Shown here: piece after piece, positions 29,737-56,747 of the stretch
Layout: every line of letters begins with the position of its first letter
How positions within the stretch are numbered: position 1 is the first letter of the stretch
From: an uncultured Alphaproteobacteria bacterium
Lineage (GTDB): Bacteria > Pseudomonadota > Alphaproteobacteria > HIMB59 > GCA-002718135
Reading direction: 5' to 3'
Assembly: GCA_902530685.1 (NCBI GenBank)
Contig: CACAAZ010000004.1
Span: 1 to 62,569, forward strand
Length of the DNA: 62,569 nucleotides
Made by a program: the position numbers and the translations under genes
The notes under the pieces: generated by a model
Seen by the model: only the letters and a program-made list of their open reading frames with translations
Told to the model about the DNA's origin: nothing
Databases searched by the model: none

Positions 29737-30417
29737 GTGAGTTATTCTTACTATGAAGTCTACACCAATACACAACGAGCTTTTTCTGGATTAGGGTTCA
29801 CTTATGGATCAGATGAAGATGCTGCATTTATTACAACCTGGCTTGAAGTATTTGGTTTGGATGGGATCAAATTATTAACATTAAAAATTGAAGAGTTAGA
29901 TAACAATTTTAATCCTAGCATAGATCCATCAAAAATAAATGATGAGTTTGATTGTAAAAATAAATCTTTTTTGGTGATAGGACCAGGTTTAATTGATTAT
30001 TTAATATCAAAAATAGATAAAAGGGATGATTTAAAATTAACTTTTAAAAATTGTAATGACCCTATATTCCTTTTACCTTTACTTTACAAGTATGCCAAAA
30101 AAAATATCTATTCACAGTTTTTGTTAGATAAAAAAATTGATGCACAAATAACAAATAAAAATATTAGTATTAATAGAGATATTATCTCTACAAATTATCA
30201 AAGGAATTTTGATCTTTTACTCACAAAGAAAATTTTAAATGAACAAAGGTTAGATGTTAATATTCCATCATCAAATATTAATAATATGCTCTCTAAGGGT
30301 ATTAATCCTGATGAAAAATCTTGGAATCAAATATCTAAGATAGCTTTTAGAACTTTTGTTCCAGAGTCAGAGGAATCTAGAGCAAAAGGTGCTGGAGGTG
30401 GTGATGCAAACGATTAA
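29737..30417 (+). CDS. DUF3726-like protein
   Basis: N-terminal SYYEV..TQRAFSGLG..G.DEDAA...WLE..GLDG and C-terminal RTFVPESEESRAKGAGGGDAND match DUF3726 as I recall it; GTG at 29737 is the likelier start than ATG 29701. Confidence 0.7.
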   Translation: MSYSYYEVYTNTQRAFSGLGFTYGSDEDAAFITTWLEVFGLDGIKLLTLKIEELDNNFNPSIDPSKINDEFDCKNKSFLVIGPGLIDYLISKIDKRDDLKLTFKNCNDPIFLLPLLYKYAKKNIYSQFLLDKKIDAQITNKNISINRDIISTNYQRNFDLLLTKKILNEQRLDVNIPSSNINNMLSKGINPDEKSWNQISKIAFRTFVPESEESRAKGAGGGDAND

Positions 30418-31589
30418 TTTACGATATGTAAATCTCTTGGAACATTTGTAAGTAATTCAAAGCCATTTTCAGTTACCCTCACAGACTCACTTAGCTCAAG
30501 TCCCCATGTATCCATCCACATTCCACACATGAGGTGGTATGTTACGTTAGGATACAATAATGTTTTCTCATTTTTTCGAATACTTAGTGTGTGCTCTCCC
30601 CAATCTGGCGGATAGCCAAGACCAATTGAATAGCCAGCTCTTGATTCTTTTTCCAATCCATATTTTTCTAATACTGACCAAAAAGCAACTGCTACATTAT
30701 GACAACTATTACCTGGTTTAGTTTGTTCCAAGGCTCTCTCAATACCTTCATTAGTTATTTTTAATGTATCTGATATTTTTGGATCAGGCTTTCCTATGTA
30801 AACTGTTCTTGATAAGGCACAATGATAACGATGTTTTACACCTCCTAGTTCAATTATAGTGCCTTCATTATTTTCAAATTTTTTTTCACTTGGCGTTAAA
30901 TGTGATGCAGAGGCTGATCTTCCACTTGCGAGTATAAGTCCCAAACCAGCATATTCTCCACCCATTTTTGTTTCATCATTTCCGGCAATAAGGGTATTAT
31001 GAATTTTTCCAGCGACAGTACTTTGTTTTACTCCTTCTTTGATAGAATCAAAAGCAGTTTGCATTCCAGCTCTAACAAGAACTCCTGCATCCTTCATATA
31101 TTTAATCTCACTTTCCGACTTAATGTATCTTACCCAGTTGATAAGAAGATGAGCATTAATAAATTTAGCATCTGTTAAATTATTTTTTAATCTGCTATGA
31201 TTTTCAGCAGTATAATAATAACTATCCATTTCTACACCGATGCGGTTGGATGACCATTTTTTATCTTTAATTAATTGAACTACATAATCATAAGGGTGTA
31301 ATGGCGGAGATTGTATAAGATTTTCAGGATAACCATAAATATTTTCATCATATAAAAAAGTAGTTATTCTTGCCCCATTTGAATCTTGTTTTCTTCCAAA
31401 CCAATAAGGCTGGTCCTCGTCAATTGATATGATTATACCTTGTGGTACATAAAATGACCAACCATCATAGCCAGTTAGGTAATTCATATTTGATGGATCA
31501 GTACTAATTAAAATATCTATACCTTTTTTAGACATTGATTCTTTAACTTTTTTAATTCTAAGATTGTATTCTTCTTTTGAAAAAATCAT
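30414..31589 (-). CDS. doeA: ectoine hydrolase DoeA/EutD (M24 pita-bread fold)
   Basis: FSKEEY..R, DPSNMNYLTGYDGWSFY, WFGRKQDSNGA, RYHCALSRT, SRAGYSIGLGYPPDWGEHTLS, GMWMDTWGLE. Confidence 0.85.
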   Translation of the reverse strand: MIFSKEEYNLRIKKVKESMSKKGIDILISTDPSNMNYLTGYDGWSFYVPQGIIISIDEDQPYWFGRKQDSNGARITTFLYDENIYGYPENLIQSPPLHPYDYVVQLIKDKKWSSNRIGVEMDSYYYTAENHSRLKNNLTDAKFINAHLLINWVRYIKSESEIKYMKDAGVLVRAGMQTAFDSIKEGVKQSTVAGKIHNTLIAGNDETKMGGEYAGLGLILASGRSASASHLTPSEKKFENNEGTIIELGGVKHRYHCALSRTVYIGKPDPKISDTLKITNEGIERALEQTKPGNSCHNVAVAFWSVLEKYGLEKESRAGYSIGLGYPPDWGEHTLSIRKNEKTLLYPNVTYHLMCGMWMDTWGLELSESVRVTENGFELLTNVPRDLHIVN

Positions 31590-31604
31590 TGTTTCCCGTT
31601 TTAA

Positions 31605-32171
31605 TTATCTTTCTGATATTTCGTATCCAAATTGGTATGCTGTTTCAAGTAGGATCTCCCAAGTTGAAAGTGCAAAACCTCTAGGTATAAATAGTTGAAA
31701 ATTATTTTTAGAAAATTTTAATAACTTTATATTTACATGATGAATAGCAGAACTAGCAGAAGAATTTGCTTTGAATACTGACTCTCTTAGATCAATAGGT
31801 AAAAATCTGTTTAAAAGTAATGTGGTATTTTCTCCAGTTATATTAATTGATGTATATGCATGTGATAAATCTAAATTAGTTCCTAAATGATCTGGAAGAT
31901 CTAAATTATTTTTTAATATCCACCATTTTAGTGGCTCTATTCTCCAAATCGAATTTTCATCATTTAATATTCCCTCATTGAAGTGTGGAACTTTCTCAAT
32001 GTTTAGTTTTTCTTTTATATATGTTTCTGATTGAAATAAAGTATCTGGCCAACAAGCTATCTGCTTAAGATTGAGGTTTGTAGTTTCCTTAAATTTTATG
32101 GTTACATTATTATTAATAGGAAAGCTACCTGGTTTATATGAAGTATCTAACGATGAGGATCTATCAACCAT
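31605..32171 (-). CDS. soxG: sarcosine oxidase subunit gamma
   Basis: DLSHAYTSINITG, PIDLRESVF, IPRGFALSTWEIL; ATG 32171 overlaps the soxA stop. Confidence 0.8.
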   Translation of the reverse strand: MVDRSSSLDTSYKPGSFPINNNVTIKFKETTNLNLKQIACWPDTLFQSETYIKEKLNIEKVPHFNEGILNDENSIWRIEPLKWWILKNNLDLPDHLGTNLDLSHAYTSINITGENTTLLLNRFLPIDLRESVFKANSSASSAIHHVNIKLLKFSKNNFQLFIPRGFALSTWEILLETAYQFGYEISER

Positions 32172-35130
32172 GCATTCTCTCACCTTTTGGATCAAGCATG
32201 TGAGAAGATACTACTTGAATTTCAATTTGTTTGTTTCTAATCGGATCACTGCCAATTACATTAATATTTTTCCATTCTTCAACACCACCCTTTATAAATC
32301 CTAAGCCAATCCAATGTCCTAATTCGGGTGAATGAGTAACTGAAGTAATTCTACCAACACCGAAACCTTTTATATTATTTTTTTCACAAATTATTGTTCC
32401 GGAAGCAAAAGTATCATTCTTATTAACAGGAAAAAAACCCACTAGCTTTTCTCTATCTGAAGCACTTAAAACTCCTCTTTTTCTCAATGCGCTACCGATG
32501 TACGATTTCTTATCTGATGCCATTTTTCCTAAACCCACATCATCAATAGTTGTTCGACCATCAAGTTCAGCACCTGTTACATGTCCTTTTTCAATTCTAA
32601 GTGCACCTAGAGCTTCAACACCATATAAACACCCATCAAATTGTTTTGCGGATTTCCATAAAATATCCATCATTATATTTGCATAATCTGCTTGAATATA
32701 AATTTCAAATCCGAGCTCACCAGAAAAACTTATTCTAGCAATTCTACATGGAATTCCTCCCTTAAGTGTAGCTGAGATAAAACACATGAATGGTAAATTT
32801 TCATTAGATATCGTAGAAGGATCTTCTAAACATTGGCTTAAAACATCTCTTGTCTTTGGGCCAGAAATAGCTGCTACACCCCACTGCTCAGAAACACTTG
32901 TCACATTGACTTTTAAATCAGTCCATCGTACTTGAAGTAATTCTTCTAACCATGACATTACTTTTCCTGCCTGGGATGTTGAAGTTGTCATAAAATATTC
33001 ATTATCTGACAACCGCCAACAAGTACCATCATCTAAAACTATACCATCATCACGTAACATAATTCCATATCTCGTTTTATTTATTGGAAGTTTAGCAAAA
33101 GCATTAGTGTAAATTCTATTAATAAATTCTGTTGAGTCAGGTCCTTGAATAGCTATTTTACCTAATGAACTAACATCACATATACCTACTGTTTTTCTAA
33201 CTGTTGCAGCTTCTCTGATGTATGCCTCATCTATGGTCTCATTGCTTTTAGGAAAATACCATGGTCTATCATATAAACCAGCATCAATCATTGTTGCTCC
33301 ATTTTCCAAATTCCATGCATGCATTGGAGTAGTTCTAAGAGGCATGAAGTGTTTTCCAACACTCCTACCGGCTAATGCACCAATAGAAACAGGAGTAAAG
33401 GGTGGACGAAAAGTTGTAGTACCTACCTCTGGAATTTCTTTTCCAAGCAAATCTGCCATTAAAGATAAACCTATTATATTACCCATCTTACCTTGATCAT
33501 TTGCCATGCCTAAAGTTGTATAACGTTTTAAATGTTCAACTGATATAAATCCTTCTCTATGTGCTAAGCGTACATCATCACAGATTACATCATGTTGAAA
33601 ATCTACGAAACTTTTTGAGCGAGTTTTTTTTGATTTAACTTCATATAAAGGTTCGATTGGATTCATCCAGCCACCTTGTTTTGGAAAAAAATAATCTGTT
33701 TTTGATATTCCAAGTTTATTAATTGCATCTAAAGTACCTGCAATTCCTGAGTCAATACAATCACCTTTACCCCATATCCCTCTAGCAGAACCTATAACTG
33801 TAATATTTTCTTTGGGTTCTCCAGGTACAAAACATAAATTTTCTGTGTCCCAAACTGGACGCACTCCTCGATGAGATAATAGATGGACTGCAGGTGACCA
33901 TCCACCTGACATTAAGACCTGATCACATGTAATTGTATCTATTTTATTGTATTTTGAATTTATCGAGTTGGCGATATCTAAACTATTTATTTTTTTAGAA
34001 CCATTAATGTTATATGGAACAACACCATTTATTACTTCAAAATTATTTTTGTTTAAATCTATATTTGTTTCTTTGCGATTATCTAAAACTATTACATTTG
34101 CTCCAGCTTTTGCTAATATTTCTGCTGTTGAATATACTGAATCATTGTTAGTTGTAATTACAATTTTTTTCCCAGTTAATACACCATATCTATTTAAATA
34201 ATGTTTAGATGCGTTTACAGTCATTGAACCAGGGACATCATTATTATTAAATGCGATATGTCTTTCAAAAGAACCTGATCCGATTAAAACATGTTTAGCT
34301 CTAACAATCCAAAATCTCTGCTTTGGCAATCTTCTATCTGAGAGGGTAACGTTTTCTTCAACTCTTTCTACCAAACCTAACACACAATTATCGTACAAAC
34401 CAAATGCGGTTGTTCTTTTCATAACTCTTACACCAAGACTTTTTAGTTCTTTGAAAGCTTCGTCAGAATTAAATTCACTCTCAGATAATTGATCGCCTCC
34501 TATCATATTGTCCTGTTCAACAAGTATGACATCAAGTTTTCTATCAGCAGCTTCTTTAGCAGCAGCGATACCTGCAGGACCAGAACCGACTATAAGTATA
34601 TCACAGTGATCATTTGCATGTTCATACACATCTGGATCAGGTAAACGAGAACTTCTTCCCATACCAGCAGCTTTCCTAATGAATTTTTCAAAAAACATCC
34701 AAACAGATGTACCAGATCCCCACTCAAAAGGTGGAATTCCCATGAAAGTCTTGTAATAAAAACCTGCAGGAACAAATCGACTTAATAAGTTATTAATAGA
34801 AGCGAGATCAAAATTTACACTTGGGAATGCATTTTGGCCAGAAGCAATTAAACCTTCGTATAATTCTTGAGAAGTAACTCGAACATTTGGTTCTTTTCTA
34901 TCCCCAGTACCAATGGTTACCAATCCACCAGACTCCTCCACTCCACATGACATTATACCTCTAGGTCGATGATATTTAAAACTTCTTCCTACTACTCTAA
35001 TGTCATTAGCTAATAGAGCTGAAGCAAGAGAGTCACCTTGATAGCCAAAATAATTTTTATTTTCCCAACTAAATTTCAATTGTTTTTGACGATTAATTTT
35101 ACCAAAATTTTCTATTCTTCTTGAGCTCAT
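32164..35130 (-). CDS. soxA: heterotetrameric sarcosine oxidase / N-methylglutamate dehydrogenase subunit alpha
   Basis: GDSLASALLAN, GRSFKYHRPRGI, AGFYYKTFM, EHLKRYTTLGMANDQGK, TTFRPPFTP, GcvT-like C-terminal domain. Confidence 0.93.
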   Translation of the reverse strand: MSSRRIENFGKINRQKQLKFSWENKNYFGYQGDSLASALLANDIRVVGRSFKYHRPRGIMSCGVEESGGLVTIGTGDRKEPNVRVTSQELYEGLIASGQNAFPSVNFDLASINNLLSRFVPAGFYYKTFMGIPPFEWGSGTSVWMFFEKFIRKAAGMGRSSRLPDPDVYEHANDHCDILIVGSGPAGIAAAKEAADRKLDVILVEQDNMIGGDQLSESEFNSDEAFKELKSLGVRVMKRTTAFGLYDNCVLGLVERVEENVTLSDRRLPKQRFWIVRAKHVLIGSGSFERHIAFNNNDVPGSMTVNASKHYLNRYGVLTGKKIVITTNNDSVYSTAEILAKAGANVIVLDNRKETNIDLNKNNFEVINGVVPYNINGSKKINSLDIANSINSKYNKIDTITCDQVLMSGGWSPAVHLLSHRGVRPVWDTENLCFVPGEPKENITVIGSARGIWGKGDCIDSGIAGTLDAINKLGISKTDYFFPKQGGWMNPIEPLYEVKSKKTRSKSFVDFQHDVICDDVRLAHREGFISVEHLKRYTTLGMANDQGKMGNIIGLSLMADLLGKEIPEVGTTTFRPPFTPVSIGALAGRSVGKHFMPLRTTPMHAWNLENGATMIDAGLYDRPWYFPKSNETIDEAYIREAATVRKTVGICDVSSLGKIAIQGPDSTEFINRIYTNAFAKLPINKTRYGIMLRDDGIVLDDGTCWRLSDNEYFMTTSTSQAGKVMSWLEELLQVRWTDLKVNVTSVSEQWGVAAISGPKTRDVLSQCLEDPSTISNENLPFMCFISATLKGGIPCRIARISFSGELGFEIYIQADYANIMMDILWKSAKQFDGCLYGVEALGALRIEKGHVTGAELDGRTTIDDVGLGKMASDKKSYIGSALRKRGVLSASDREKLVGFFPVNKNDTFASGTIICEKNNIKGFGVGRITSVTHSPELGHWIGLGFIKGGVEEWKNINVIGSDPIRNKQIEIQVVSSHMLDPKGERMHG

Positions 35131-35132
35131 AA

Positions 35133-35411
35133 CTATTTTTCAAATACTTTTTGAAGTTGTGTGTGGCAAGGTTTAACACTCTTAATTTCATGAGTTATTG
35201 TTGAACGCTCGACTTCTAACCACATTCTACAACCATTTGAGTGTTGCCAAGTTTCTCTTTGAATGCCTTTGATATTTTCTCTAAAAAAGACTGCTTCAAC
35301 CCAATCTTTTTCTGGTGCATCTAAACTTGGATAAACTATTGATGCGTCACTTCCATAACTAAACTCGCTATGATCTCTATCTCCACAATAAGGGCATTTT
35401 ATTATTATCAT
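35133..35411 (-). CDS. soxD: sarcosine oxidase subunit delta
   Basis: CPYCG..EF and WQHSNGCRMW zinc-binding motifs. Confidence 0.92.
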   Translation of the reverse strand: MIIIKCPYCGDRDHSEFSYGSDASIVYPSLDAPEKDWVEAVFFRENIKGIQRETWQHSNGCRMWLEVERSTITHEIKSVKPCHTQLQKVFEK

Positions 35412-35414
35412 AAT

Positions 35415-36683
35415 TTAACCATGCATTTTTGGATCAGGGCCACTACCACTCTCATCAATATTAATACCTTTTTCAAATCTCTCTAAATTATGATTGGCAA
35501 TTACTTTATGAGGTCTTTCATTTGCTATTAAGTCAGCAAAATACCAGCCAGAAGCTGGACTTGCTTTAAAACCACCATAATTCCAACCTGCGTTTAAGTA
35601 CAAGTTTTCAACTGGTGTTTTGCACATAAAAAAAGATCCATCCATACTCATGTCCATCACTCCAGCCCAATGTCTTAACAATCTTAGTTTTCCAAGACAC
35701 GGCATTATTGCCATTGCACCCTCACCATTTTCTTTTACAGTTGGCAAGTTTCCCCTTTGAGCATAAGACTTGTACCAATCTAGCTCACCTCCAAATACCA
35801 TGCTTCCTTTATTTGTTTGAGAAATATAGAAATGTGCGGCACCAGCAGGAGCGTATATTAATACACAATCCAAAAGAGGTTTAACAGCCTCTGTAACAAA
35901 CGCCTGTAACTTATGAGACTCTATCGGTAAATTACCTAACTCTGCCATTTGCCATAAGACAGATGTATGACCAGCAACAGCAAATCCAATTTTTTTGCCT
36001 TTTATATCTCCCCTAGTAGTTTGCAAACTTTCTATTGATCCATTCTTACGTGTCACTCCAGTAACTTCACAATTCTGTAATATATCTACACCAAGTGAGT
36101 CAGCTGCCCTTGCATATCCCCATACAGCAGAGTCGTGCCTTGCATTACCAGCACGAGGTTGAACAATTGCTCCTAAAATTGGGAAACGGCCATTATCATA
36201 ATTAAGGTGAGGTATTTTATTTTTTAGTTTATTTAAATCCCACAACTCACCATCTGAACCAGTAAGTCTCATAGTGTTGTAACGTCTTGCAAAAGAATCA
36301 AGAGCACCTGGGTTGTTAATTAAAAGCACATGAGATCGCTGACTAAACATAACATTGTAATTCAAATCATGGCTTAAGTTTTCCCATAATCTTAATGTAT
36401 GTTCATAAAATTCTCTATTACCCGGCATCATATAATTTGATCGTACAATTGTTGTGTTACGCCCTGCATTACCACCACCAATCCAACCCTTTTCTAAAAC
36501 TGCAACATTATGCATGTTATGATTTTTGGCTAGGTAGTAAGCGGTAGCTAGTCCATGTAATCCTCCCCCCACAATAACTGCATCGTAAGATGCTTTTGGT
36601 TCTGGATCACGCCATTGTCTACTCCAACCTGAATTACCATTAAAGCCATTTTTAATTACATTCCAAGCATTGAATCTAGTCAT
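35415..36683 (-). CDS. soxB: sarcosine oxidase subunit beta
   Basis: WRDPEPKASYD, GGGLHGLATAYYLAK, GRNTTIVRSNY, ARHDSAVWGYARAA, PIESHKLQA. Confidence 0.93.
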   Translation of the reverse strand: MTRFNAWNVIKNGFNGNSGWSRQWRDPEPKASYDAVIVGGGLHGLATAYYLAKNHNMHNVAVLEKGWIGGGNAGRNTTIVRSNYMMPGNREFYEHTLRLWENLSHDLNYNVMFSQRSHVLLINNPGALDSFARRYNTMRLTGSDGELWDLNKLKNKIPHLNYDNGRFPILGAIVQPRAGNARHDSAVWGYARAADSLGVDILQNCEVTGVTRKNGSIESLQTTRGDIKGKKIGFAVAGHTSVLWQMAELGNLPIESHKLQAFVTEAVKPLLDCVLIYAPAGAAHFYISQTNKGSMVFGGELDWYKSYAQRGNLPTVKENGEGAMAIMPCLGKLRLLRHWAGVMDMSMDGSFFMCKTPVENLYLNAGWNYGGFKASPASGWYFADLIANERPHKVIANHNLERFEKGINIDESGSGPDPKMHG

Positions 36684-36792
36684 AAGATATTCGTATATTT
36701 AATCTATTTTTTGTTCAATATATTTTTTTTCATTAAATTGAACATGCAGTCGCATGCTTTATAGCCTTAATTTAAGACCAAAAATAAAGCAT

Positions 36793-48997: not shown

Positions 48998-50167
48998 TTA
49001 GTTTATTCTTTCAATCCATTGATTAAATAACTTGTGTAAACACTCATTAGATTTTTCAAGTTCAGATAAACTAATATATTCATTAGCTTTGTGTGCTTGA
49101 TCTATTGAGCCTGGACCACATACAACAACATCCATATTCATTTGTTGAAATATACCAGCCTCAGTTCCAAACGAAATAACTCCAGTTGAATTTGATTTTA
49201 AAATTTCCAGCATAATTACTCTAGCTTGATTTTCCTCTCTTGGAATAAGCCCTGGTATTTCTCCTATTACTTCAGTTTCAATTTTAGCTTCTAAAAATTT
49301 AGATTTCATTTCAGGAAGAAGTTCCCTCTCACAATATGTTGAAATATTATTTTTTACAAATTGCAAATCTTCATTATTAACAGGTCTCATTTCCCAATCT
49401 ATTGAACATTGTCCAGCAATAACATTATGTGCAACACCTCCTTCAATTTTACCAGCCTGTATCGTTGACCAAGGAGGATCGAAGGGACTATCATTTGGTG
49501 TTCTTTCTTTTAATTCATTTGCTAATTCAAAAAGTTTATTTGTAAACAAAGATCCATACTGAATTGCGGATAGTCCTTTTTCAGGATTTGAAGCATGACC
49601 TTCCTTACCGTGAAAACAAGTGGTATATTCACAGTCACCTTTATGTGCTTCTATTACTTCCATACTTGTTGGCTCACCTATGATTACCATTGCAGGTTTA
49701 AATTTATATTTTTTTAGCTCTTCAGAAAGATGTCTTGCTCCAAAACATCCGATCTCTTCATCATATGTAAAGCTAAAATGAATTGGAAAATTTAATTTTT
49801 TATTTTTTAGAATTTCTGCAGTAGCTAGAGCTGAAGCAATAAATCCTTTCATATCACAACTACCTCTTCCATAAAGAAGCTCATCTTTTTGTGTAAGTTT
49901 AAAAGGATCTGATTTCCAACCTAGTTCTTTAGCAGGAACAACATCTGTATGACCTGACAATACTATCCCGCCATCAATCTCTGGTCCTATTGTTGCAAAA
50001 ATGTTAGCTTGTTTGTTATCTGCAGTAGTCATTACATCTACTTTTCCTCCAATAGATTTAATCTTATCAGATAAGTAATTAATCATTTCTAAATTGCTCT
50101 CTGAAGAAACTGTTGGATATGAAACCAAATCAGCTAATATTGAAACAGTTTTGTCAATTGTTCTCAT
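48998..50167 (-). CDS. argE: acetylornithine deacetylase family (M20A)
   Basis: VLSGHTDVVP, LYGRGSCDMKGF, YDEEIGC, IGEPT, FGTEAG, CGPGSIDQAHKANE. Confidence 0.88.
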   Translation of the reverse strand: MRTIDKTVSILADLVSYPTVSSESNLEMINYLSDKIKSIGGKVDVMTTADNKQANIFATIGPEIDGGIVLSGHTDVVPAKELGWKSDPFKLTQKDELLYGRGSCDMKGFIASALATAEILKNKKLNFPIHFSFTYDEEIGCFGARHLSEELKKYKFKPAMVIIGEPTSMEVIEAHKGDCEYTTCFHGKEGHASNPEKGLSAIQYGSLFTNKLFELANELKERTPNDSPFDPPWSTIQAGKIEGGVAHNVIAGQCSIDWEMRPVNNEDLQFVKNNISTYCERELLPEMKSKFLEAKIETEVIGEIPGLIPREENQARVIMLEILKSNSTGVISFGTEAGIFQQMNMDVVVCGPGSIDQAHKANEYISLSELEKSNECLHKLFNQWIERIN

Positions 50168-50264
50168 TTACAAGTAAAAATCTATACACTAATTTAATTA
50201 ACTGAATATAAGAAAAGCCTTAAACTTATATATTTTTCATTATTTTTTGGAGAAGAAAACTAAA

Positions 50265-50279
50265 ATTGTTGTATACAAT
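50265..50279. promoter_or_regulatory. putative operator ATTGT-N5-ACAAT (EnuR/EhuR-like) upstream of ehuB
   Basis: ATTGTTGTATACAAT inverted repeat, containing the palindrome TTGTATACAA, in the argE/ehuB divergent spacer. Confidence 0.55.
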
Positions 50280-50336
50280 CATAAATTTACCAGTAAAAAT
50301 ATCTCTAACTAAACAATTATTTAGGAGGGAAATGAT

Positions 50337-51167
50337 ATGAGATCATTAATAATTGCAATTACAATTATACTTACATCTTTTTCAATAAATGCTGAGTCAT
50401 TATCTGAAAAAGTTGCAGCAGGTGGAAAACCATCGCTCGGATTTGCTACGGCTGTTCCTTGGGGTTATCCTGGTGAAAATGGTGAGCCATTAGGTTTTGT
50501 TAATAAAATAGCTTTAACAATACTTGAAGAAATGGGAATCAATGAAGTTGATACTTCCGTTAATGAGTGGGCTGGCTTAATTCCTGGTCTTAACGCTGGT
50601 CGTTACGACATAATTACGGGTGGTATGTATATTCTTAAAAGTAGATGCGAGAATATAGATTTCTCTGATCCAATTGGATACTTTGGAGATGCTATGATGG
50701 TTCCTGCTGGAAATCCAAAAGGTATTCATAACTATGAAGATGTTGTAAGAACAGGTGCTACTCTTGTGACTGGTATTGGTTTTAATACAGTTGAAGCAGC
50801 AAAAAAATACGGAGTTCCTGATAGCCAAATGCTACTTGTGGATGGTGAAGTAGGAATTCTAGCAGCTATGCAAGCAGGTAGAGCTGATGTTGCAGTACAT
50901 ACTGTTTTTAGTGTTCAAGAACATGTTGAAATTTCTGATGGAAAATTTGAACAAACTGATGCTACAAAAATGCCCAAAGAAGTAATGAATGTAGTTGGTA
51001 TTGGTTTCAGAAAATCTGATTCAGATTTCAAAGAAGAATTCAACAAAGCACTAGCAAAAACTATTGGTGGTGAAAAATGGATGGCAAGAACTGCAGAGTA
51101 TGGATACACTGCAGCTCAATTACCTCCAGAAGGTTTCACAACTGAATATGCTTGTGCTAATAAATAA
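50337..51167 (+). CDS. ehuB: ectoine/hydroxyectoine ABC transporter solute-binding protein
   Basis: Signal peptide, PWGY, EWAGLIPGLNAGRYDIITGGMYILKSRC, VPAGNPKGIHNYED, GFRKSD; AGGAGG SD. Confidence 0.82.
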   Translation: MRSLIIAITIILTSFSINAESLSEKVAAGGKPSLGFATAVPWGYPGENGEPLGFVNKIALTILEEMGINEVDTSVNEWAGLIPGLNAGRYDIITGGMYILKSRCENIDFSDPIGYFGDAMMVPAGNPKGIHNYEDVVRTGATLVTGIGFNTVEAAKKYGVPDSQMLLVDGEVGILAAMQAGRADVAVHTVFSVQEHVEISDGKFEQTDATKMPKEVMNVVGIGFRKSDSDFKEEFNKALAKTIGGEKWMARTAEYGYTAAQLPPEGFTTEYACANK

Positions 51168-51179
51168 TTAAACTTTCTT

Positions 51180-51216
51180 AACTCAGGTAATATAGATTGC
51201 CTGAGTTTTTGATTTT
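51180..51216 (+). terminator. intrinsic terminator/attenuator between ehuB and ehuC
   Basis: AACTCAGGTAAT-atag-ATTGCCTGAGTT (one G-U pair) followed by TTTGATTTT. Confidence 0.8.
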
Positions 51217-51232
51217 CCAAGGATAACCAATT

Positions 51233-51904
51233 TTGAATTTTTTTAGTTTTGTATTTGAGTACGGCCCTAAATTTACATCTGCCGCAATAATTACTGCTCA
51301 AGTTTTTATTTATTCATCATTACTTGCAGTATTAATTTCACTTATTTTTGGAATAATGAGGTTATCAAAAAATATAATTATTCAATCAATTGCAACTATA
51401 TATATCGAGTTCTATCGTGGAACTTCATTAATCATCCAAATGTTTTGGATATATTATGTACTTCCTTTGTTTGGAGTTCCTTTGCCAGCTTTACTAGCTG
51501 GTGTTTTAGCCTTAGGTATGAATTTTGGTGCTTATGGCGCAGAGGTATTTAGAGCAGGTATTTTAGCAGTACCCAAAGGACAGTGGGAAGGTGCATTAGC
51601 TCTCAATTTTAGTAAAAGTAAAAGAATGCAAAGAATTATTATACCTCAAATATATCCAATAATACTTCCTCCTGCAGCAAACCTTGCAGTAGAATTACTT
51701 AAGGGTACAGCTCTAGTATCTTTAATTACGCTTGTAGATTTAATGTTTGTAGCTAAGCAAATTAATATGATGACTTGGCTTTCCGCCCAGTCATTTGGAT
51801 TAGCGCTTATAATTTATTTTGTTATGGCAAGATTTGTTCTTGTGCCTTTTTTACGATGGTTAGAATTATTGGCAGCAAAAAAAGTTGGTAGAGGAAAAAT
51901 TTAA
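51233..51904 (+). CDS. ehuC: ectoine ABC transporter permease (TTG start)
   Basis: YIEFYRGTSLIIQMFWIYYVLP, GAYGAEV.RAG, GQWE, ELLKGTALVSLIT. Confidence 0.85.
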   Translation: MNFFSFVFEYGPKFTSAAIITAQVFIYSSLLAVLISLIFGIMRLSKNIIIQSIATIYIEFYRGTSLIIQMFWIYYVLPLFGVPLPALLAGVLALGMNFGAYGAEVFRAGILAVPKGQWEGALALNFSKSKRMQRIIIPQIYPIILPPAANLAVELLKGTALVSLITLVDLMFVAKQINMMTWLSAQSFGLALIIYFVMARFVLVPFLRWLELLAAKKVGRGKI

Positions 51905-51906
51905 TT

Positions 51907-52584
51907 ATGTACGTAGAATGGAGATGGGAATGGACATTTGAAATATTACCTCAAATGCTATGGGCTACTCTAAATACTTTTTTGGCAGCTGGAGTTGGGT
52001 ACGCAATAGCAGCAGTTGTTGGTATTATATTAATGTTAGGACAAAGAACACCTTATAAAATAGTAAATATTGTAATAAGAGAAATCGTCGAATTTATTCG
52101 TTCCACACCTCTTCTTGTCCAATTATTTTTTGTTTATTTTGTTGCTCCACAATTTGGAATAATTCTTTCAGCTTGGGTTTCTGCAATGATTACAATTGGG
52201 CTTCATTACGGTACATATCTTTCTGAGGTTTATAGAGGTGCTCTGGAAGGAGTCCAAAGAACTCAGTGGGAAGCATGCAAAGCTCTTAACTTTTCAAGTG
52301 GTTATACTTACCGTAAAATAATACTTCCTCAAGCATTCCCAATTGCTATTCCAGGAATGGGAAATTACCTTGTTGGAATTTTTAAAGATACTCCTTTACT
52401 TGCTACAATAGGAGTTGCAGAACTGTTCTTTACAGCAAATGCCATAGGAGCATATACATATAGATACCTCGAGCCATACACAATGGTAGGTGTCATATTC
52501 TTAGTTATTTCATTACCCACAGCATTTGGTATAAGAAGACTTGAAGCAGCAGTTAATAAAGCACAAGGAAAATTTAATGTATAA
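51907..52584 (+). CDS. ehuD: ectoine ABC transporter permease
   Basis: W.WEWTFEILP, EFIRSTPLLVQL, GLHYGTYLSEVYR, GNYLVGIFKDTP, YRYLEP. Confidence 0.88.
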   Translation: MYVEWRWEWTFEILPQMLWATLNTFLAAGVGYAIAAVVGIILMLGQRTPYKIVNIVIREIVEFIRSTPLLVQLFFVYFVAPQFGIILSAWVSAMITIGLHYGTYLSEVYRGALEGVQRTQWEACKALNFSSGYTYRKIILPQAFPIAIPGMGNYLVGIFKDTPLLATIGVAELFFTANAIGAYTYRYLEPYTMVGVIFLVISLPTAFGIRRLEAAVNKAQGKFNV

Positions 52585-52599
52585 AGGTTTAAAAATAAT

Positions 52600-53394
52600 A
52601 TGAATCAAGATGATAATTCAAGTGACATTTTAGTAAAATTTTCTGAAGTAACAAAACAATATGGAGATTTAGTTGTTTTAGATAAATTAAATCTGGAAAT
52701 AAAAAAAAATGAAATGGTTTCAATTATAGGCCCATCTGGTTCTGGAAAAACAACAGTCTTAAGAGTTTTAATGACATTAGAAAAAATAAATAATGGTGTC
52801 ATTTATTTGGATAATGAACCATTAACGCATATGAATGAAAATGGAAAATTAATAGAAGCTAGTGAAAAATATATCAGGGAAAGAAGATCAAAAATAGGTA
52901 TGGTCTTTCAACAATTTAATTTATTTCCCCATATGACTGCATTGCAAAATTGTATAGAGGCACCTGTGCATGTTTTAGGTCTTAAAAAAGAAGATGCCGA
53001 AGAAAGAGCGCTTGAATTACTAGAACTTGTTGGACTCTCTGATAAAAAAGATGAGCATCCTACTAGATTATCAGGTGGGCAACAGCAACGAGTTGCTATT
53101 GCAAGAGCTTTAGCAATGAGGCCAAAAGTAATGTTATTGGATGAAATTACTTCAGCACTTGACCCTGAAGTTGTTGGAGAAGTATTAAATGTTATTCGTT
53201 CTCTTAATAAAGAACATAACCTTACTATGATTATGGTGACCCATCAGATGGGGTTTGCGAGAGAAATTTCAGATCGTGTTTGTTTTTTTTATGATGGTAA
53301 AATTTTTGAACAAGGCCCTCCAGAGAGATTATTTGGAAATCCTCAAAATGAAAGGACTAAACAATTTCTTCATGCTGTTTTGGATGCAAACTAA
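52600..53394 (+). CDS. ehuA: ectoine ABC transporter ATP-binding protein
   Basis: GPSGSGKTTVLRVLMTLE, LSGGQQQRVAIARALAMRP, DEITSALDPE. Confidence 0.88.
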   Translation: MNQDDNSSDILVKFSEVTKQYGDLVVLDKLNLEIKKNEMVSIIGPSGSGKTTVLRVLMTLEKINNGVIYLDNEPLTHMNENGKLIEASEKYIRERRSKIGMVFQQFNLFPHMTALQNCIEAPVHVLGLKKEDAEERALELLELVGLSDKKDEHPTRLSGGQQQRVAIARALAMRPKVMLLDEITSALDPEVVGEVLNVIRSLNKEHNLTMIMVTHQMGFAREISDRVCFFYDGKIFEQGPPERLFGNPQNERTKQFLHAVLDAN

Positions 53395-53395
53395 T

Positions 53396-54151
53396 TTATA
53401 TTTTAAATAAATTTCCAAACCCATTAATTTTATTTTCTTTAATATTTGATAATTTTAAAGAGTCCCATATCAATGCTTGGTTACTAGAAATAACATTAAT
53501 CTTAAAATCATTTTCTATATCTTCTAGAATATCAACGATTTTTAATGCTGTACAAGATACAAATAAACCATCAATATTTTTAAAGTTAATTTTGGAAATT
53601 TGATCCTTTAAACTCTTTAAACTAACTTGAGCTATTTCAGAGTCGTAATTTAGATTAAAAGAACTAAAGGACTCAATCTCAATATTGAAATTTTTAAGAT
53701 AATTAAAAACGGTTAAATTTACATCCTTAGGATAAGGAGTTAAGACAGCAATTTTTTGAAATTTTAATTTTTTAAAAGCTTTTAAAGCTGCTGTGATAGG
53801 AGTTGTAACTAATGTATTAGGCTTTGATTTACGAATTTGATTTGTTATTTCTTTTTCACCAATTGCAATAGTTCCAGATGTACAACCATATGCAACCACA
53901 TCAATATTTTGACCAGGTAATATTTGATCACAGACTTCAGGTATATAATTAGCCATTTTTAAATAATTTTCATGATTTAAAGGGTTATTGAAAGGTATCC
54001 TATTTACAAATATGTCTATTGGAAGAGAATGACATATTTTCCTGAAATCTTGTTCTATTGTAAAATCTGTTGAAAGAGCAATAAGTCCTATCCTTGGATT
54101 AGTTGTATTTTCCAAAATAGGATATAATATATTTTGATTGAAGTTTTTCAT
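53396..54151 (-). CDS. eutA: Asp/Glu racemase / maleate isomerase family, EutA-like
   Basis: RIGLIALSTDFTIEQDF, AYGCTSG and FVSCTAL (two catalytic Cys), LTPY, SSNQA. Confidence 0.8.
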   Translation of the reverse strand: MKNFNQNILYPILENTTNPRIGLIALSTDFTIEQDFRKICHSLPIDIFVNRIPFNNPLNHENYLKMANYIPEVCDQILPGQNIDVVAYGCTSGTIAIGEKEITNQIRKSKPNTLVTTPITAALKAFKKLKFQKIAVLTPYPKDVNLTVFNYLKNFNIEIESFSSFNLNYDSEIAQVSLKSLKDQISKINFKNIDGLFVSCTALKIVDILEDIENDFKINVISSNQALIWDSLKLSNIKENKINGFGNLFKI

Positions 54152-55254
54152 TACTGATTTGGAAAATAATCTTCACATTCACCTTCGCGGTAGACATCTG
54201 TTGTTGCACAATGGAGACTTCCTCCAAAAGCATAGACATCTCTAAAAGGAACTGGAATAACATCCATACCAAAATTTTCCATTTGTTTAATCATTTTTTC
54301 TTCAGAAGCTTCAACACAAATGGTTTTTGGATTTAGAATCAAAACGTTCATGGATAGCCATATAGATGAGTAGCACATTGGCGGAGGAGTGTTATGGATT
54401 GAAGGTGCCGCCTCGTGTATTTCCCATTTATTATCGTCAAATATTTTTCTTTGTTCATTTGATATTTTTCTGTTTGGGTTCATTATAATAACTCCAGGTT
54501 TTATTGGCGTAAAACATGCATCAATATGAGTAGGTATTAGTTCTCCAGGTAAATTAATCTGATGAATACGATGATTTGGATAATGTCTTCTTAACCAATC
54601 TAAACCTTTTAAATTTGATGTAAAATTGTTGTGATAAAAAAGATCTTTTCCAAAGCGTAAAATTTCTGCTGCATCAAAAAGTGGTTCTTTTTCTGTCAAT
54701 ATCATATCTCTATTTTCAATTTTTTTATATCTTTCTTCTTCAGTTATGCCTTCAGGAAGATAATTAGACTTATAAGATTGATTAGTTAATCTTGGTTTTG
54801 GTGCTGACTCCCATCGCATATTTTTATCTTCTGAATAATATTTTTCAAGTAATGGTCTATACGCAAGATATTCAAACCATCTACATCTATAAGACATGGG
54901 TGCTTCTAGCATTTCATTACCTACTGTTAATATAACATCCCTTGGTGGCATACAACCAAACATACCTTCGTTTGACCAATCTGGAGTATTTATTGTTTGA
55001 CTAAAATCTATTGGAGTTGGTCTATCAACTTTTATATCAAGATTATTCAATATTTTTACGAAATTGTCTAATTGAATATTAGCTTTATCAATTGCATCCT
55101 TTGGTCTTGGCCCATGAGATCCAATCATACCGCTATCTTTACTAATTTTTGGAGCAAGAGCGGGTTCAATTGGTGGGATATTTGAATTTTCTACTCTACC
55201 AACTATTACATGTTTAAGAGAATCCCATTCATTCCACGAATTTACTATTGTCAT
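54151..55254 (-). CDS. amidinotransferase (glycine/inosamine-phosphate amidinotransferase family)
   Basis: VNSWNEWDSLKHVIVGR, PPRD, FDAAE, HIDA, WLSMNVL, GGSLHCAT: Asp-His-Cys triad intact; TAATG overlap with eutA. Confidence 0.9.
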   Translation of the reverse strand: MTIVNSWNEWDSLKHVIVGRVENSNIPPIEPALAPKISKDSGMIGSHGPRPKDAIDKANIQLDNFVKILNNLDIKVDRPTPIDFSQTINTPDWSNEGMFGCMPPRDVILTVGNEMLEAPMSYRCRWFEYLAYRPLLEKYYSEDKNMRWESAPKPRLTNQSYKSNYLPEGITEEERYKKIENRDMILTEKEPLFDAAEILRFGKDLFYHNNFTSNLKGLDWLRRHYPNHRIHQINLPGELIPTHIDACFTPIKPGVIIMNPNRKISNEQRKIFDDNKWEIHEAAPSIHNTPPPMCYSSIWLSMNVLILNPKTICVEASEEKMIKQMENFGMDVIPVPFRDVYAFGGSLHCATTDVYREGECEDYFPNQ

Positions 55255-55295
55255 TATAAGTTCCTTAATTTAAATTAAGTATATATTTATAGAAT

Positions 55296-56747
55296 ATGGA
55301 ATTAAATAATAAATCTCTGTTTAAAGAAAAATGTTATGTCAATGGTAGTTGGGTTGAAAGCCAATCCGGTGATTTTTTAGAAGTAAATAATCCCGCAACA
55401 CAAGAGATCATCGGGAAAGTCCCTAAATTTACAAAAGATGAAACAAAAAAAGTAATAGAAAATGCGAATGATGCTTTTCAAACATGGAAAAACACAACTG
55501 CAAAAGAAAGATCTGTTATTCTTAAAAAATGGGGAGATTTAATTGTTGAAAACGTAGAAGATCTTGCAAAAATTATGACAATAGAACAAGGTAAACCTGT
55601 AGCAGAAGCTAAAGGTGAAATATTAATGGGAGCATCATACATTGAATTTTATGCAGAAGAGGCAAAAAGAGTATATGGCGATATAATACCAGACCCAAGA
55701 CCTGGAAAAAGAATAGTTGTAATTAAACAACCTGTAGGAGTTGTTGGAGCCATAACTCCATGGAATTTCCCCAACTCAATGATAACTAGGAAATGTGCAG
55801 CTGCTTTAGCAGTAGGTTGTACAGCGGTTGTTAAACCAGCAAGTCAAACTCCTTATTCGGCTTTGGCAGTTGCTGAATTAGCACATAGGGCTGGTTTTCC
55901 TAAAGGTGTGTTTAATATTATTACAGGATCTGCAAAAGATATAGGTTTAGAATTAACTAAAAATCCAATGGTTCGAAAAATTTCATTTACAGGTTCGACC
56001 GAAGTTGGCAAAATATTAATGGAACAAAGTGCTTCAACTGTAAAAAAGGTTTCAATGGAATTGGGTGGTCATGCACCTTTCATAGTATTTGATGATGCTG
56101 ATCTGAATGAAGCTGTAACTGGAGCAATGCAAAGTAAGTTTAGAAATAGTGGTCAAACTTGTATTTGTTCAAATCGAATTTTTGTTCATGAGAAAGTTTA
56201 TGATGAATTTTTAGAAAAATTTTCAGCTGAGGTGAAAAAAATTAAAGTTGGAAATGGATTAGATGAAGGCGTTGTGTCAGGTCCACTTATAGATAAATCA
56301 TCTTTAGATAAAGTAATTGATCATGTGCAAGATGCAGTAAATACGGGTGCAAAAATAGCCGTAGGTGGTGACGTTCATTCACTTGGTGGTAATTTTTATC
56401 AACCTACAGTCTTATCACATGTGACAACTAAAGCTAAAATTACATTTGAGGAAACATTTGGTCCAGTTGCACCGTTATATAAATTTTCAAATGATGAAGA
56501 AGTAATAAATTTAGCAAACGATACTCCTTATGGTTTAGCATCCTATTTTTATTCAAGAGATATTAGTAGAGTATGGAAAATTGCTGAAGCTTTGGAATAT
56601 GGTATTGTGTCAATTAATAATGGACTTCCAACAATTGCTGAAATACCGTTTGGGGGAGTAAAAGAATCTGGAATGGGAAGAGAAGGATCAAAGTACGGTT
56701 TAGACGATTATCTAGTTATTAAATACATTTCAATGGGCGGTATTTAA
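55296..56747 (+). CDS. gabD: NAD(P)-dependent succinate-semialdehyde dehydrogenase family (GabD/DoeC-like)
   Basis: EQGKP..EAKGEI, AEEAKRVYGD, ITPWNFP, MELGGHAP, SKFRNSGQTC, EETFGPVAP. Confidence 0.85.
   Translation: MELNNKSLFKEKCYVNGSWVESQSGDFLEVNNPATQEIIGKVPKFTKDETKKVIENANDAFQTWKNTTAKERSVILKKWGDLIVENVEDLAKIMTIEQGKPVAEAKGEILMGASYIEFYAEEAKRVYGDIIPDPRPGKRIVVIKQPVGVVGAITPWNFPNSMITRKCAAALAVGCTAVVKPASQTPYSALAVAELAHRAGFPKGVFNIITGSAKDIGLELTKNPMVRKISFTGSTEVGKILMEQSASTVKKVSMELGGHAPFIVFDDADLNEAVTGAMQSKFRNSGQTCICSNRIFVHEKVYDEFLEKFSAEVKKIKVGNGLDEGVVSGPLIDKSSLDKVIDHVQDAVNTGAKIAVGGDVHSLGGNFYQPTVLSHVTTKAKITFEETFGPVAPLYKFSNDEEVINLANDTPYGLASYFYSRDISRVWKIAEALEYGIVSINNGLPTIAEIPFGGVKESGMGREGSKYGLDDYLVIKYISMGGI

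Follow-up and report, generated by a model that had tools for sequence, protein, structure and literature searches.

A mosaic catabolic locus in an uncultured HIMB59 alphaproteobacterium combines ectoine-type genes with a recurrent M24 hydrolase, deacylase, racemase and sarcosine oxidase-like module

The stretch of DNA analysed here, called the window below, is the whole 62.6-kb contig C4 (CACAAZ010000004.1, 62,569 nucleotides) of the draft genome G000 from an uncultured alphaproteobacterium of the HIMB59 lineage; the assembly measures 1.05 Mb, is 56% complete and has a G+C content of about 30%. Genes were called from the open reading frame (ORF) listing and assigned to families by Pfam and NCBIfam scans, which also covered the small and unassigned ORFs. 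Between positions 30414 and 56747, genes resembling those for uptake and breakdown of ectoine and 5-hydroxyectoine are interleaved with further M24-fold hydrolases, an amidinotransferase, two deacylases, a pyridoxal phosphate (PLP) enzyme, a proline-racemase homolog and a sarcosine oxidase-like operon (Table 1). Every gene that a first-pass annotation had named in this interval was recovered at its place by the ORF, Pfam and NCBIfam scans.

Table 1. Features of the ectoine-type locus and its flank, in order from the high-coordinate end of the locus. Numbers joined by < or > are model scores and their cut-offs.
Feature	Position	Strand	Part of locus	Basis and remarks
GabD/Ssd-type succinate-semialdehyde dehydrogenase	55296-56747	+	divergent from core operon	TIGR01780 724.6 > 646; candidate DoeC/Ssd role
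AGAT-family amidinotransferase	54151-55254	-	first gene of core	PDB 1JDW/1JDX, E 1e-75
EutA-like, Asp/Glu-racemase/arylmalonate-decarboxylase superfamily	53396-54151	-	core	TIGR02990 204.9 < 318
EhuB-like, EhuC, EhuD, EhuA ABC transporter	50337-53394 (EhuB 50337-51167)	+	cassette	C, D and A above equivalog cut-offs; EhuB (TIGR02995) 162.6 < 190.9
ArgE-type deacetylase	48998-50167	-	cassette	PRK07522 451.5 > 412; divergent from ehuB
Class-I glutamine-amidotransferase-like protein (GATase)	48244-48963	-	cassette	Pfam GATase 53.6 bits; PRK09065 94 < 205
BisC-family molybdopterin S/N-oxide reductase, cytoplasmic	45962-48247	+	cassette	TIGR00509 860.8 < 1017.6
M24d, DoeA-like metal-free M24 hydrolase	44695-45867	-	cassette	DoeA_2 231/575
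M24c, DoeA-like metal-free M24 hydrolase	43535-44689	-	cassette	DoeA_2 190/575
EutB-like, PLP threonine/serine-dehydratase family	42575-43525	-	core	PRK07476 374.4 < 413; TIGR02991 344 < 413
EutC-like, ornithine-cyclodeaminase/mu-crystallin family	41601-42578	-	core	PRK08291 448.8 > 408; TIGR02992 417 < 472
PLP481, 481-aa PLP enzyme, O-acetylserine-sulfhydrylase/CBS fold	40152-41597	-	core	CysK 80.6 < 351
M20D amidohydrolase, DoeB2-like deacylase	38995-40149	-	core	TIGR01891 above cut-off; DoeB2 315.5 < 550
M24b, metal-free M24 hydrolase of its own type	37815-38969	-	core	ligand positions C,G,R,D,G
ProRac, proline-racemase superfamily, Ser/Cys dyad	36793-37815	-	core (variable)	NF047722 433.9 < 550
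soxB	35415-36683	-	core	576 > 529
soxD	35133-35411	-	core	100.9 < 116.5
soxA	32164-35130	-	core	1149 < 1164
soxG	31605-32195	-	core	57 < 144
M24a, EutD/DoeA ortholog	30414-31589	-	core	TIGR02993 460.7 < 613
DUF3726 protein	29701-30417	+	flank	Pfam
554-aa hypothetical protein	28067-29731	+	flank	ESM Atlas: clusters named 'hypothetical protein' alone
M19 dipeptidase	27026-28012	-	flank	Pfam

The region is a mosaic of a family-wide core, a rare 9.9-kb cassette and unrelated neighbours; it had been described as an expanded supercluster, and it is not one operon built for one pathway. Among 79 sampled genomes of the family, 69 gave a match to EutA at E ≤ 1e-30; three of these hold only a paralog of 30% identity, which leaves ortholog-level matches in 66 of 79. 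The sister family gave a match in one of 71 genomes. EhuB orthologs (93%) were found in two of 150 other genomes of the order, and three more hold a paralog of 28–29%. Because the core is family-wide and EhuB orthologs occur in only two of 150 genomes, the segment 43526-53395 (M24c, M24d, BisC, GATase, ArgE and EhuBCDA) is an accessory cassette, inserted between EutA and EutB. One EhuB-bearing genome (G149) has the full architecture of the window and the other (G031) part of it. A repeat search across 43300-53600 returned low-complexity chance matches only, with no flanking direct repeats and no trace of a mobile element.

The conservation of the core extends to its gene order. A scan for PLP481 across one genome per GTDB species returned 30 loci, 13 of them at 76–84% identity in records titled MarineAlpha5, HIMB59, Pelagibacterales/Pelagibacteraceae or uncultured Alphaproteobacteria single-amplified genomes; the other 17, at 50–58%, belong to other Alphaproteobacteria, Myxococcales and Acidimicrobiales. 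The window accordingly falls within the AEGEAN-169/HIMB59 group. By tblastn of the window's proteins, PLP481, M20D, M24b and ProRac are adjacent in all 13 HIMB59-type loci, the longer of which read BioY-ROK-GabD(-)-AGAT-EutA-EutB-EutC-PLP481-M20D-M24b-ProRac-soxBDAG; the same search found no EhuB ortholog, ArgE, GATase, M24c or M24d in these 13. Synteny regions from seven further genomes, which represent six genera of the window's family, show the complete core order with M24a after soxG in three (G001, G003 and G021). The order is the same through soxG in G005, where no EutD homolog was detected behind soxG. G027 has a reduced set of GabD, AGAT, EutA and EutD, directly adjacent and without EutB through soxG; no ProRac homolog was detected between M24b and soxB in G065, whose contig stops at soxD; and G111 shows EutA, EutB, EutC and PLP481 only. 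GabD beside AGAT is conserved in G001, G003, G005, G021 and G027, and the flank of M19 dipeptidase, 554-residue protein and DUF3726 protein is syntenic with the core in G001, G005, G021, G027 and G149. Co-occurrence of the extra genes with ehu/eut genes is thereby borne out within the family for AGAT, PLP481, M20D, M24b, ProRac and soxBDAG, which are syntenic with EutA/B/C/D. The genome with the reduced cluster (G027, loci L054 and L055), from a different genus of this family, also carries a ProRac homolog (55%), at a distance of about 22 kb.

A different insert, located between EutC and PLP481, was found in three loci (L004, L007 and L011). It holds a BisC homolog (66%) together with another ABC transporter, related to that of the window at 55% in EhuA and at 27–28% between its binding protein and EhuB. 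At least two sites in the core have therefore received insertions, and the occurrence of BisC in both inserts suggests that this gene travels with transporters of the polar-amino-acid type. The window's BisC aligns from position 1 of its own model and with TorA models only from positions 46–50, which argues for a protein without an export signal. The cassette was probably derived from an ehuBCDA-type cluster and would give high-affinity uptake to a minority of strains.

Thirteen minus-strand genes run from M24d (45867) through M24a (30414), with a widest gap of 109 nt, and AGAT overlaps EutA by 1 nt. The tight eight-gene operon reported for 45867-36793 stands as far as spacing is concerned (gaps of 5, 9, -4, 3, 2, 25 and -1 nt). 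In evolutionary terms the run is composite: M24d and M24c are part of the strain-variable insert, and the remaining six genes are family-wide core. This 9-kb interval (36793-45867) was held at half or more of the sampled words by 14 DNA runs from seven studies. Contigs from RNA libraries (four studies) fall on M24b, M20D, PLP481, EutB, M24c, M24d, ArgE and soxA, several of them with 0–1 mismatches, and gene boundaries are bridged by two of them. Such contigs carry no expression level, strand or transcript ends, and the parts that they leave uncovered are uninformative; they lend weak support to expression of the cluster genes. Promoter and terminator scans of 29500-49400 yielded fewer sites than shuffled sequences did, which is uninformative for AT-rich DNA.

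The window shares with canonical Eut/Doe ectoine clusters a EutD/DoeA ortholog, EutA-, EutB- and EutC-like genes, a succinate-semialdehyde dehydrogenase (SSADH)-type dehydrogenase and, in this strain, an Ehu-type ABC transporter. M24a matches the solved ectoine hydrolase DoeA (PDB 6TWK/6TWJ) over its full length (E 7e-109, 368 bits) and by this homology is an ortholog of EutD/DoeA, with a predicted activity of that type. The cyclodeaminase is, judged from its family matches, an ordinary EutC homolog, and GabD agrees with the description of Ssd/DoeC as SSADH-like (PMC5924519). The sub-cut-off scores of EutA, EutB, EutD and EhuB could stem from AT-rich divergence or from a different specificity. 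In contrast to canonical clusters, the window has no AstE-type EutE, aminotransferase or EnuR/AsnC regulator, its EhuB scores below cut-off and carries Ala for a pocket-aligned Glu, its transporter is accessory (two of 150 genomes), and three extra M24 proteins, M20D, ArgE, AGAT, PLP481, ProRac and a sox paralog are interleaved with the eut genes.

The absence of canonical eutE/doeB, doeD/atf and enuR, stated in the first-pass annotation, is upheld among the scanned window ORFs, in which Pfam and NCBIfam likewise found no class-III aminotransferase and no regulator family (EnuR MocR/GabR, AsnC). EutE (TIGR02994) was found in none of five genomes (G000, G031, G149, G001 and G007), three of them at least 90% complete; G000 is 56% complete, so that absence from the rest of this genome carries little weight. 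Three class-III aminotransferases are encoded elsewhere in G000, all under the EctB cut-off (best 173.7 < 552). The gene set described as non-canonical is present as listed. A 2026 survey of ectoine catabolism, for which inclusion required EutD, EutE and EutB, already presents as putative ectoine clusters some from other phyla that have no eutE and carry two eutD homologs, or abgB (M20D) (PMC13188858). That such catabolic clusters exist and vary was known; the new part is the uncharacterised module described below.

Two proteins may stand in for EutE. In G262, a genome of 5.1 Mb and 60% G+C outside the family, an ArgE homolog (48%) adjoins EutD, divergent from ehuBCDA; because this adjacency occurs in a near-canonical ectoine cluster, the window's ArgE is most simply read as a deacetylase partner of EutD and a candidate N-acetyl-diaminobutyrate deacetylase in EutE's place. 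M20D, which is DoeB2-like and scores below the DoeB2 cut-off, is another candidate replacement.

An alignment of the M24 metal-ligand positions, which included two Geminicoccaceae M24 proteins with the full D/D/H/E/E set, separates the four hydrolases into two types. M24a, M24c and M24d have Tyr for the ligand His and have lost most other ligands as well (M24c reads Q,T,Y,E,I), and M24b has lost all five and differs from the DoeA type throughout. Given the loss of metal ligands in all four, none is expected to be a metallopeptidase. The best NCBIfam matches of M24c and M24d are ectoine-hydrolase models. M24b matches prolidases best in the PDB (78 bits) and creatinase 1CHM at 61 bits (E 8e-16); 1CHM is not among the PDB matches of M24a at E ≤ 1e-8. 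Creatinase is, we assume, metal-free as M24b is.

All four M24 lineages recur beside Ehu-type transporters. M24d homologs (E ≤ 1e-50) occur in 26 of 400 other sampled Alphaproteobacteria; orthologs at 45–56% lie beside EutB/EutC/Ehu in G262, G302 and G322 or, in Mesorhizobium, form the first gene of a sox-like operon. The best outside match of M24c (39%) is found in an Ehu-linked cluster of Aminobacter niigataensis. M24b homologs were detected in 13 of 400 other genomes at E ≤ 1e-60 and in 13 plasmid records, among which orthologs of at least 52% are those of G001, G249, G262, G410, Roseovarius pelagicus and Aminobacter sp. SR38 (55–59% in G249, G262, Roseovarius and Aminobacter); the 36–42% paralogs, at nine loci, have no common context.

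The sarcosine oxidase-like genes of the window, in the order B-D-A-G, match the Pfam families DAO, SoxD and Fer2_4/SO_alpha_A3/GCV_T, with a folate-binding GcvT domain in SoxA. A canonical copy lies on contig C3 of the same genome, where soxB (712), soxA (1337) and soxD (121) score above their cut-offs and soxG (77 < 144) below. Window soxB shares 71% identity with its counterparts in the M24b-linked operons of Roseovarius and Aminobacter, against 48% with the C3 copy. By these comparisons the window's SoxBDAG is a dedicated, divergent paralog of heterotetrameric sarcosine oxidase and not the genome's canonical enzyme. The C3 copy (L096 1-19501) has as neighbours formate-tetrahydrofolate ligase (fhs), a DMGDH-like FAD/GcvT enzyme, etfBA, one ETF-oxidoreductase-like and one DmdA/GcvT-like gene, and is likely a C1 locus for betaine, dimethylglycine and sarcosine.

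The combination of M24b, M20D, a racemase and the SoxBDAG paralog is a recurrent, previously undescribed module that occurs with Ehu-type transporters. On plasmids of Roseovarius pelagicus and Aminobacter sp. SR38, an operon of M24b (56–57%), an EutA-like gene, soxB, soxD and soxA(G) stands beside ehuCDA, close to an M20D (49–51%) and diaminopropionate-ammonia-lyase pair; the binding protein there is not named EhuB by PGAP. The racemase-type gene between M24b and soxB is EutA-like in these two hosts and of the proline-racemase type in the window. Outside the family, all five M24b orthologs (≥52%) have an M20D homolog (47–60%) in their cluster, as the immediate neighbour in G249, G262 and G410 and at 7–9 kb in Roseovarius and Aminobacter; four of the five clusters also contain an EutA-like gene. 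Complex prediction for M20D and M24b with ortholog alignments gave a score of 0.00, which speaks neither for nor against binding. In a limited literature, taken from main texts, we found no published account of a cluster combining M24b, a racemase, the sox paralog, M20D and an Ehu-type transporter.

Three ehuBCDA-type eut clusters, of the kind labelled 'cluster M' in PMC13188858, share with the window the arrangement of ArgE-EutD divergent from EhuBCDA-EutB-EutC, together with M24d, M20D and M24b at 45–55%. The fullest, in G262, comprises GntR, ArgE (48%), EutD (580/613), a divergent EhuBCDA (51–69%), EutB and EutC above cut-off, a CN-hydrolase, M24d (45%), a class-III aminotransferase, M20D (48%) and M24b (55%). 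It differs from the window in the CN-hydrolase and the aminotransferase, in having no AGAT, EutA, PLP481, ProRac, sox, BisC or GATase, and in an EhuB that keeps Glu. The cluster of G302 holds EutD-like, EhuBCDA, EutB and M24d genes, and that of G322 M24d, EutC, EutB and EutD-like genes. ArgE, M24d, M20D and M24b are thus recurrent members of ehuBCDA-type eut clusters, so that co-occurrence of these genes with EutD, EutB and EutC holds in unrelated Alphaproteobacteria as well.

A related set in Geminicoccaceae consists of EhuB-like and EhuCDA proteins, an EutA-like protein, a metal-bearing M24, diaminopropionate ammonia-lyase, M20D, GntR, PhyH, a DMGDH-like enzyme and a PLP481 homolog (54%). 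Unlike the window, the Roseovarius, Aminobacter and Geminicoccaceae clusters carry LysR, AsnC or GntR regulators, a metal-bearing M24, diaminopropionate ammonia-lyase and a DMGDH-like enzyme, and nothing in them is homologous to EutD (best M24 match 21%), EutC or AGAT of the window. A Mesorhizobium plasmid carries, divergent from ehuBCDA, an operon that begins with the M24d ortholog (56%) and includes genes for an amidase, sox-like proteins, a beta-eliminating lyase, a serine/threonine dehydratase and PurU.

The binding protein of the cassette is atypical. Besides scoring under the TIGR02995 cut-off, the window's EhuB is distant from the solved Sinorhizobium meliloti EhuB (PDB 2Q88, 94.7 bits). 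The aromatic and Arg residues aligned with the ligand pocket are conservative (W, W, Y, R), and the Glu of 'ANEPPF' is replaced by Ala in the window, G031 and G149. Glu is found at this position in the proteins of G262, G302, G152-C223 and Mesorhizobium and in the solved S. meliloti EhuB. Ile occupies this position in the proteins of Geminicoccaceae and Roseovarius, which group in a supported clade (97/98) and whose gene clusters combine M20D with a DMGDH-like or sox gene; one of two Aminobacter proteins has Gln. We take the ligand pocket to consist of three aromatics, an Arg and this Glu, with the Glu presumably in contact with ectoine. The published ligand residues of EhuB were not found in the main texts of PMC5924519, PMC13342039 or bioRxiv 10.1101/2021.01.27.428399.

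AGAT gave no Pfam match at 1e-5; it is about 45% identical to human L-arginine:glycine amidinotransferase and also matches SxtG and StrB1 in the PDB. The motifs 'HCxT', 'HID' and 'FDAA' are conserved in the alignment and correspond to the catalytic Cys, His and Asp, under the residue numbering that we take to apply. Two AGAT orthologs outside the family have neighbourhoods of their own interest. In G539 (1.3 Mb, 30% G+C; L077 7246-12044) the ortholog (62%) lies between two Creatinase_N/M24 genes, with a beta-eliminating lyase and an EamA transporter, possibly a compact guanidino-compound locus in another streamlined lineage. In G288 (L079 8404-10886) it is divergent from a CMAS-family S-adenosylmethionine-dependent methyltransferase (60% identity of the AGAT ortholog), and it is conceivable that this pair methylates guanidinoacetate, forming creatine.

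PLP481 is well conserved: an alignment of 23 sequences from several phyla has a mean column identity of 69%, with H101-K102 and G247-S248-x-G250-T251 invariant. Its AlphaFold2 model (pLDDT 88, pTM 0.91) finds cysteine synthase and beta-cyanoalanine synthase as best Foldseek matches (TM about 0.8 over the target, 20–27% identity), so that by model the protein has an O-acetylserine-sulfhydrylase/beta-cyanoalanine-synthase/CBS-type fold with extra helical termini. Its CysK score places it in this fold family and at the same time argues against a cysteine synthase. ESM Atlas returned generic or hypothetical clusters. Among the distant PLP481 loci only those of Geminicoccaceae resemble the window; the neighbourhoods of 15 distant homologs are mixed and include F420 biosynthesis, xanthine-dehydrogenase-like and CN-hydrolase genes. 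In Geminicoccaceae locus L018 (11811-16030), the PLP481 homolog is followed by a selenium-binding-protein-56 family gene, SCO1/SenC and a MauG-like di-haem peroxidase, a set that we take to resemble methanethiol-oxidase clusters and that hints, by analogy, at a sulfur-related function of PLP481 in some hosts.

ProRac carries the motifs MSGSNS and DRSPCGTG of a Ser/Cys dyad and matches PDB 4K8L, 1TM0 and 4K7G at E 1e-98 to 1e-106. Its closest structures belong to cluster 3 of the proline racemase superfamily (PRS), and it scores below the dehydratase cut-off. In PMC4113996, cluster 3 is described as functionally mixed, with Ser/Thr dehydratases, and a Ser/Cys enzyme as a 4-hydroxyproline epimerase. 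ProRac is a candidate hydroxyproline 2-epimerase or dehydratase-type enzyme by these motifs. The trans-3/4-hydroxyproline pathways set out in the same source share with the window a proline-racemase-superfamily enzyme near cluster 3 and an ornithine-cyclodeaminase-family enzyme in one operon; the window differs in its Ser/Cys dyad, where the solved cluster-3 dehydratase has Ser/Thr, in having no D-amino-acid oxidase/DHDPS/KGSA-dehydrogenase set, and in the absence of the racemase gene from some relatives (G065).

Taken together, these features suggest a mosaic catabolic island for zwitterionic, nitrogen-rich osmolytes, acting on ectoine and 5-hydroxyectoine and on at least one further, related substrate, probably an N-alkylated amidine or guanidine (creatine-like), a reading to which we give an even chance. 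The Ehu-type system would import the substrates, and the DoeA-like M24 hydrolases would open the amidine C-N bond of ectoine and 5-hydroxyectoine. ArgE, M20D or both would take off the acetyl group in EutE's place, EutA, EutB and EutC would process the hydroxylated intermediates, and an aminotransferase encoded elsewhere, together with the GabD/Ssd dehydrogenase, would lead to aspartate. In parallel, the M24b-M20D-racemase-Sox module would degrade a second, related compound, for which a creatine-like guanidino compound is the best guess. Hydrolysis would turn it into an N-alkyl amino acid, a secondary amine that the Sox paralog would dealkylate with tetrahydrofolate. AGAT may exchange amidino groups, with guanidino compounds on one side and ornithine or glycine on the other. 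The idea, already put forward in the first-pass annotation, that several related compounds are handled fits the three DoeA-like M24 paralogs plus one of another type, the dedicated sox paralog and the atypical EhuB.

Several observations weigh against this proposal. All of its substrates are read from sequence and gene context, and EutA, EutB, EutD and EhuB all fall under their NCBIfam equivalog cut-offs. The window has no diaminobutyrate aminotransferase, M24b is distant from solved creatinase, and the contact of EhuB's Glu with ectoine is presumed. Outside the family, AGAT orthologs (six of 400 genomes, 59–63%) are not eut-linked in any case, and the distant PLP481 loci are eut-linked in two of 17, both in Geminicoccaceae. 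In a streamlined genome, where genes are densely packed, adjacency counts for less than it would in a large one. The Roseovarius sox operon adjoins choline/betaine genes, so that the linkage of M24b to sox could reflect a general osmolyte island. As for expression, DNA may be present in the RNA libraries.

A more specific form of the two-substrate proposal, which we regard as a tentative possibility, is that the M24b-M20D-racemase-SoxBDAG module and the Glu-less EhuB subtype mark an undescribed, widespread alphaproteobacterial pathway for an abundant, so far unrecognised N-alkylated amidine/guanidine osmolyte or a toxin-like amino acid (for example, an N-methyl-diamino acid). A metal-free M24 would make the secondary-amine amino acid and a dedicated sarcosine-oxidase paralog would dealkylate it, with PLP481 and AGAT as HIMB59-specific steps. 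Its range would take in the AEGEAN-169/HIMB59 family, the Roseovarius and Aminobacter plasmids and, in part, Geminicoccaceae.

The locus might instead serve ectoine and 5-hydroxyectoine only, the four M24 proteins and both deacylases being isozymes for ectoine, hydroxyectoine and the alpha/gamma-acetyl-diaminobutyrate (ADABA) isomers, and soxBDAG, AGAT, ProRac, PLP481, BisC and GATase being unrelated, packed neighbours. We consider this rather unlikely, although much is consistent with it: the orthology of M24a to DoeA, the DoeA-type ligand loss and ectoine-hydrolase matches of M24c and M24d, DoeB2 as a co-best match of M20D, the near-canonical EutD/B/C with M24d, M20D and M24b in G262, and the scarcity of eut linkage for AGAT and PLP481 outside the family. 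In the same direction, DoeA is reported to yield both alpha- and gamma-ADABA, the latter apparently not a substrate of DoeB (PMC5924519), and the eutE-less two-eutD or abgB clusters noted above have been published as putative ectoine clusters (PMC13188858). Such a division of labour would leave unexplained why the sox copy is a dedicated paralog, orthologous to the M24b-linked sox operons of two unrelated genera and distinct from the canonical copy elsewhere, why M24b is unlike the DoeA type at every ligand position, why EhuB has no Glu where eut-linked homologs keep it, and why a core order that includes AGAT and PLP481 is conserved across genera.

A mainly guanidino pathway would assign these features differently. 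An Ehu-like system would import creatine-type compounds, M24b (and M24c/d) would, as amidinohydrolases, release urea and leave sarcosine or glycine, Sox would produce glycine and C1-tetrahydrofolate, AGAT would interconvert guanidinoacetate/arginine and glycine/ornithine, and the cyclodeaminase would turn ornithine into proline. The known pathway of creatinase and heterotetrameric sarcosine oxidase does resemble the window in a metal-ligand-free M24-fold hydrolase adjoining soxBDAG, with a folate-binding domain in soxA; the repeated linkage of M24b to sox gives the creatine option raised earlier some support, as do the close homology and conserved catalytic motifs of AGAT, the M24-AGAT-lyase-M24 order in the streamlined 30%-G+C genome, and the compatibility of ArgE and the cyclodeaminase with ornithine chemistry. 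Creatine, sarcosine and glycine-betaine use has also been predicted for AEGEAN-169 genomes in PMC11366302, which does not mention 'ectoine'; the main comparative-genomics paper on AEGEAN-169/HIMB59 contains none of 'ectoine', 'sarcosine' and 'creatin' (PMC10308909). We nonetheless judge the pathway improbable as the main function. M24b is only 61 bits from creatinase and M24a is clearly a DoeA ortholog, the window's sox is not the canonical copy, the module's racemase and M20D have no part in creatine breakdown, and the clusters of Roseovarius, Aminobacter and G262 have no AGAT. An Rfam scan of the whole window (E ≤ 0.1) found no guanidine, glycine or other riboswitch, only one tRNA and a chance miRNA match. 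Very improbable, in our view, is the series of ectoine analogues of different ring size that had been suggested, in which a seven-membered homologue would yield N-acetylornithine for ArgE, the cyclodeaminase and proline enzymes, and a five-membered one N-acetyl-diaminopropionate for a PLP lyase. Several DoeA-like M24 paralogs, an ArgE above acetylornithine-deacetylase cut-offs, and diaminopropionate ammonia-lyase beside M20D in Geminicoccaceae (above the NCBIfam cut-off) and in Roseovarius and Aminobacter (by record names) would suit it. The window itself has no diaminopropionate ammonia-lyase, ArgE beside EutD in G262 makes an ornithine-forming substrate unnecessary, the cyclodeaminase is the family's ordinary EutC homolog, and the Sox paralog is left without a role. 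We know of ring homologues of ectoine only as synthetic or enzymatic products, which further counts against the series.

AEGEAN-169/HIMB59 cells are abundant in oligotrophic surface oceans, and with a EutD/EutABC core present family-wide, ectoines would join the organic nitrogen sources open to the clade. The module and the Glu-less EhuB subtype offer targets toward a new osmolyte-degradation pathway, with the binding protein as a ligand probe, and the module is carried on plasmids of two cultivable hosts, Roseovarius pelagicus and Aminobacter sp.; should its substrate turn out to be new, the module would have broader interest. The core-plus-cassette layout also illustrates a route by which a streamlined genome acquires high-affinity uptake, namely insertion of the transporter genes within an existing operon.

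The whole contig is a dense catabolic region, with no regulator match. Beyond the M19/554-residue/DUF3726 flank lie an EamA protein (26167-27045) and then a Pot-type ABC transporter (21543-26096, binding protein 23780-24883), which could serve as importer in core-only strains. A type III glutamine-synthetase-family protein (3182-4507; TIGR03105 618.7 > 469.6), of a family that presumably includes gamma-glutamylmethylamide synthetases, adjoins a gamma-butyrobetaine/TmpA-like dioxygenase (2042-3112) that scores below cut-offs. The segment 5396-20312 encodes inositol and sugar dehydrogenases, a galactarate-dehydratase-like protein and aldehyde dehydrogenases; a TRAP transporter (15801-18818), a second glutamine-synthetase-like gene (14389-15747) and a D-amino-acid-dehydrogenase-like gene (20309-21538) are also present. 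At the other end of the contig, the tRNA (61919-62002, minus strand, 52.7 bits) overlaps the 5' end of a TTG-start mgtE ORF (60537-61970), so that the true mgtE start probably lies farther downstream.

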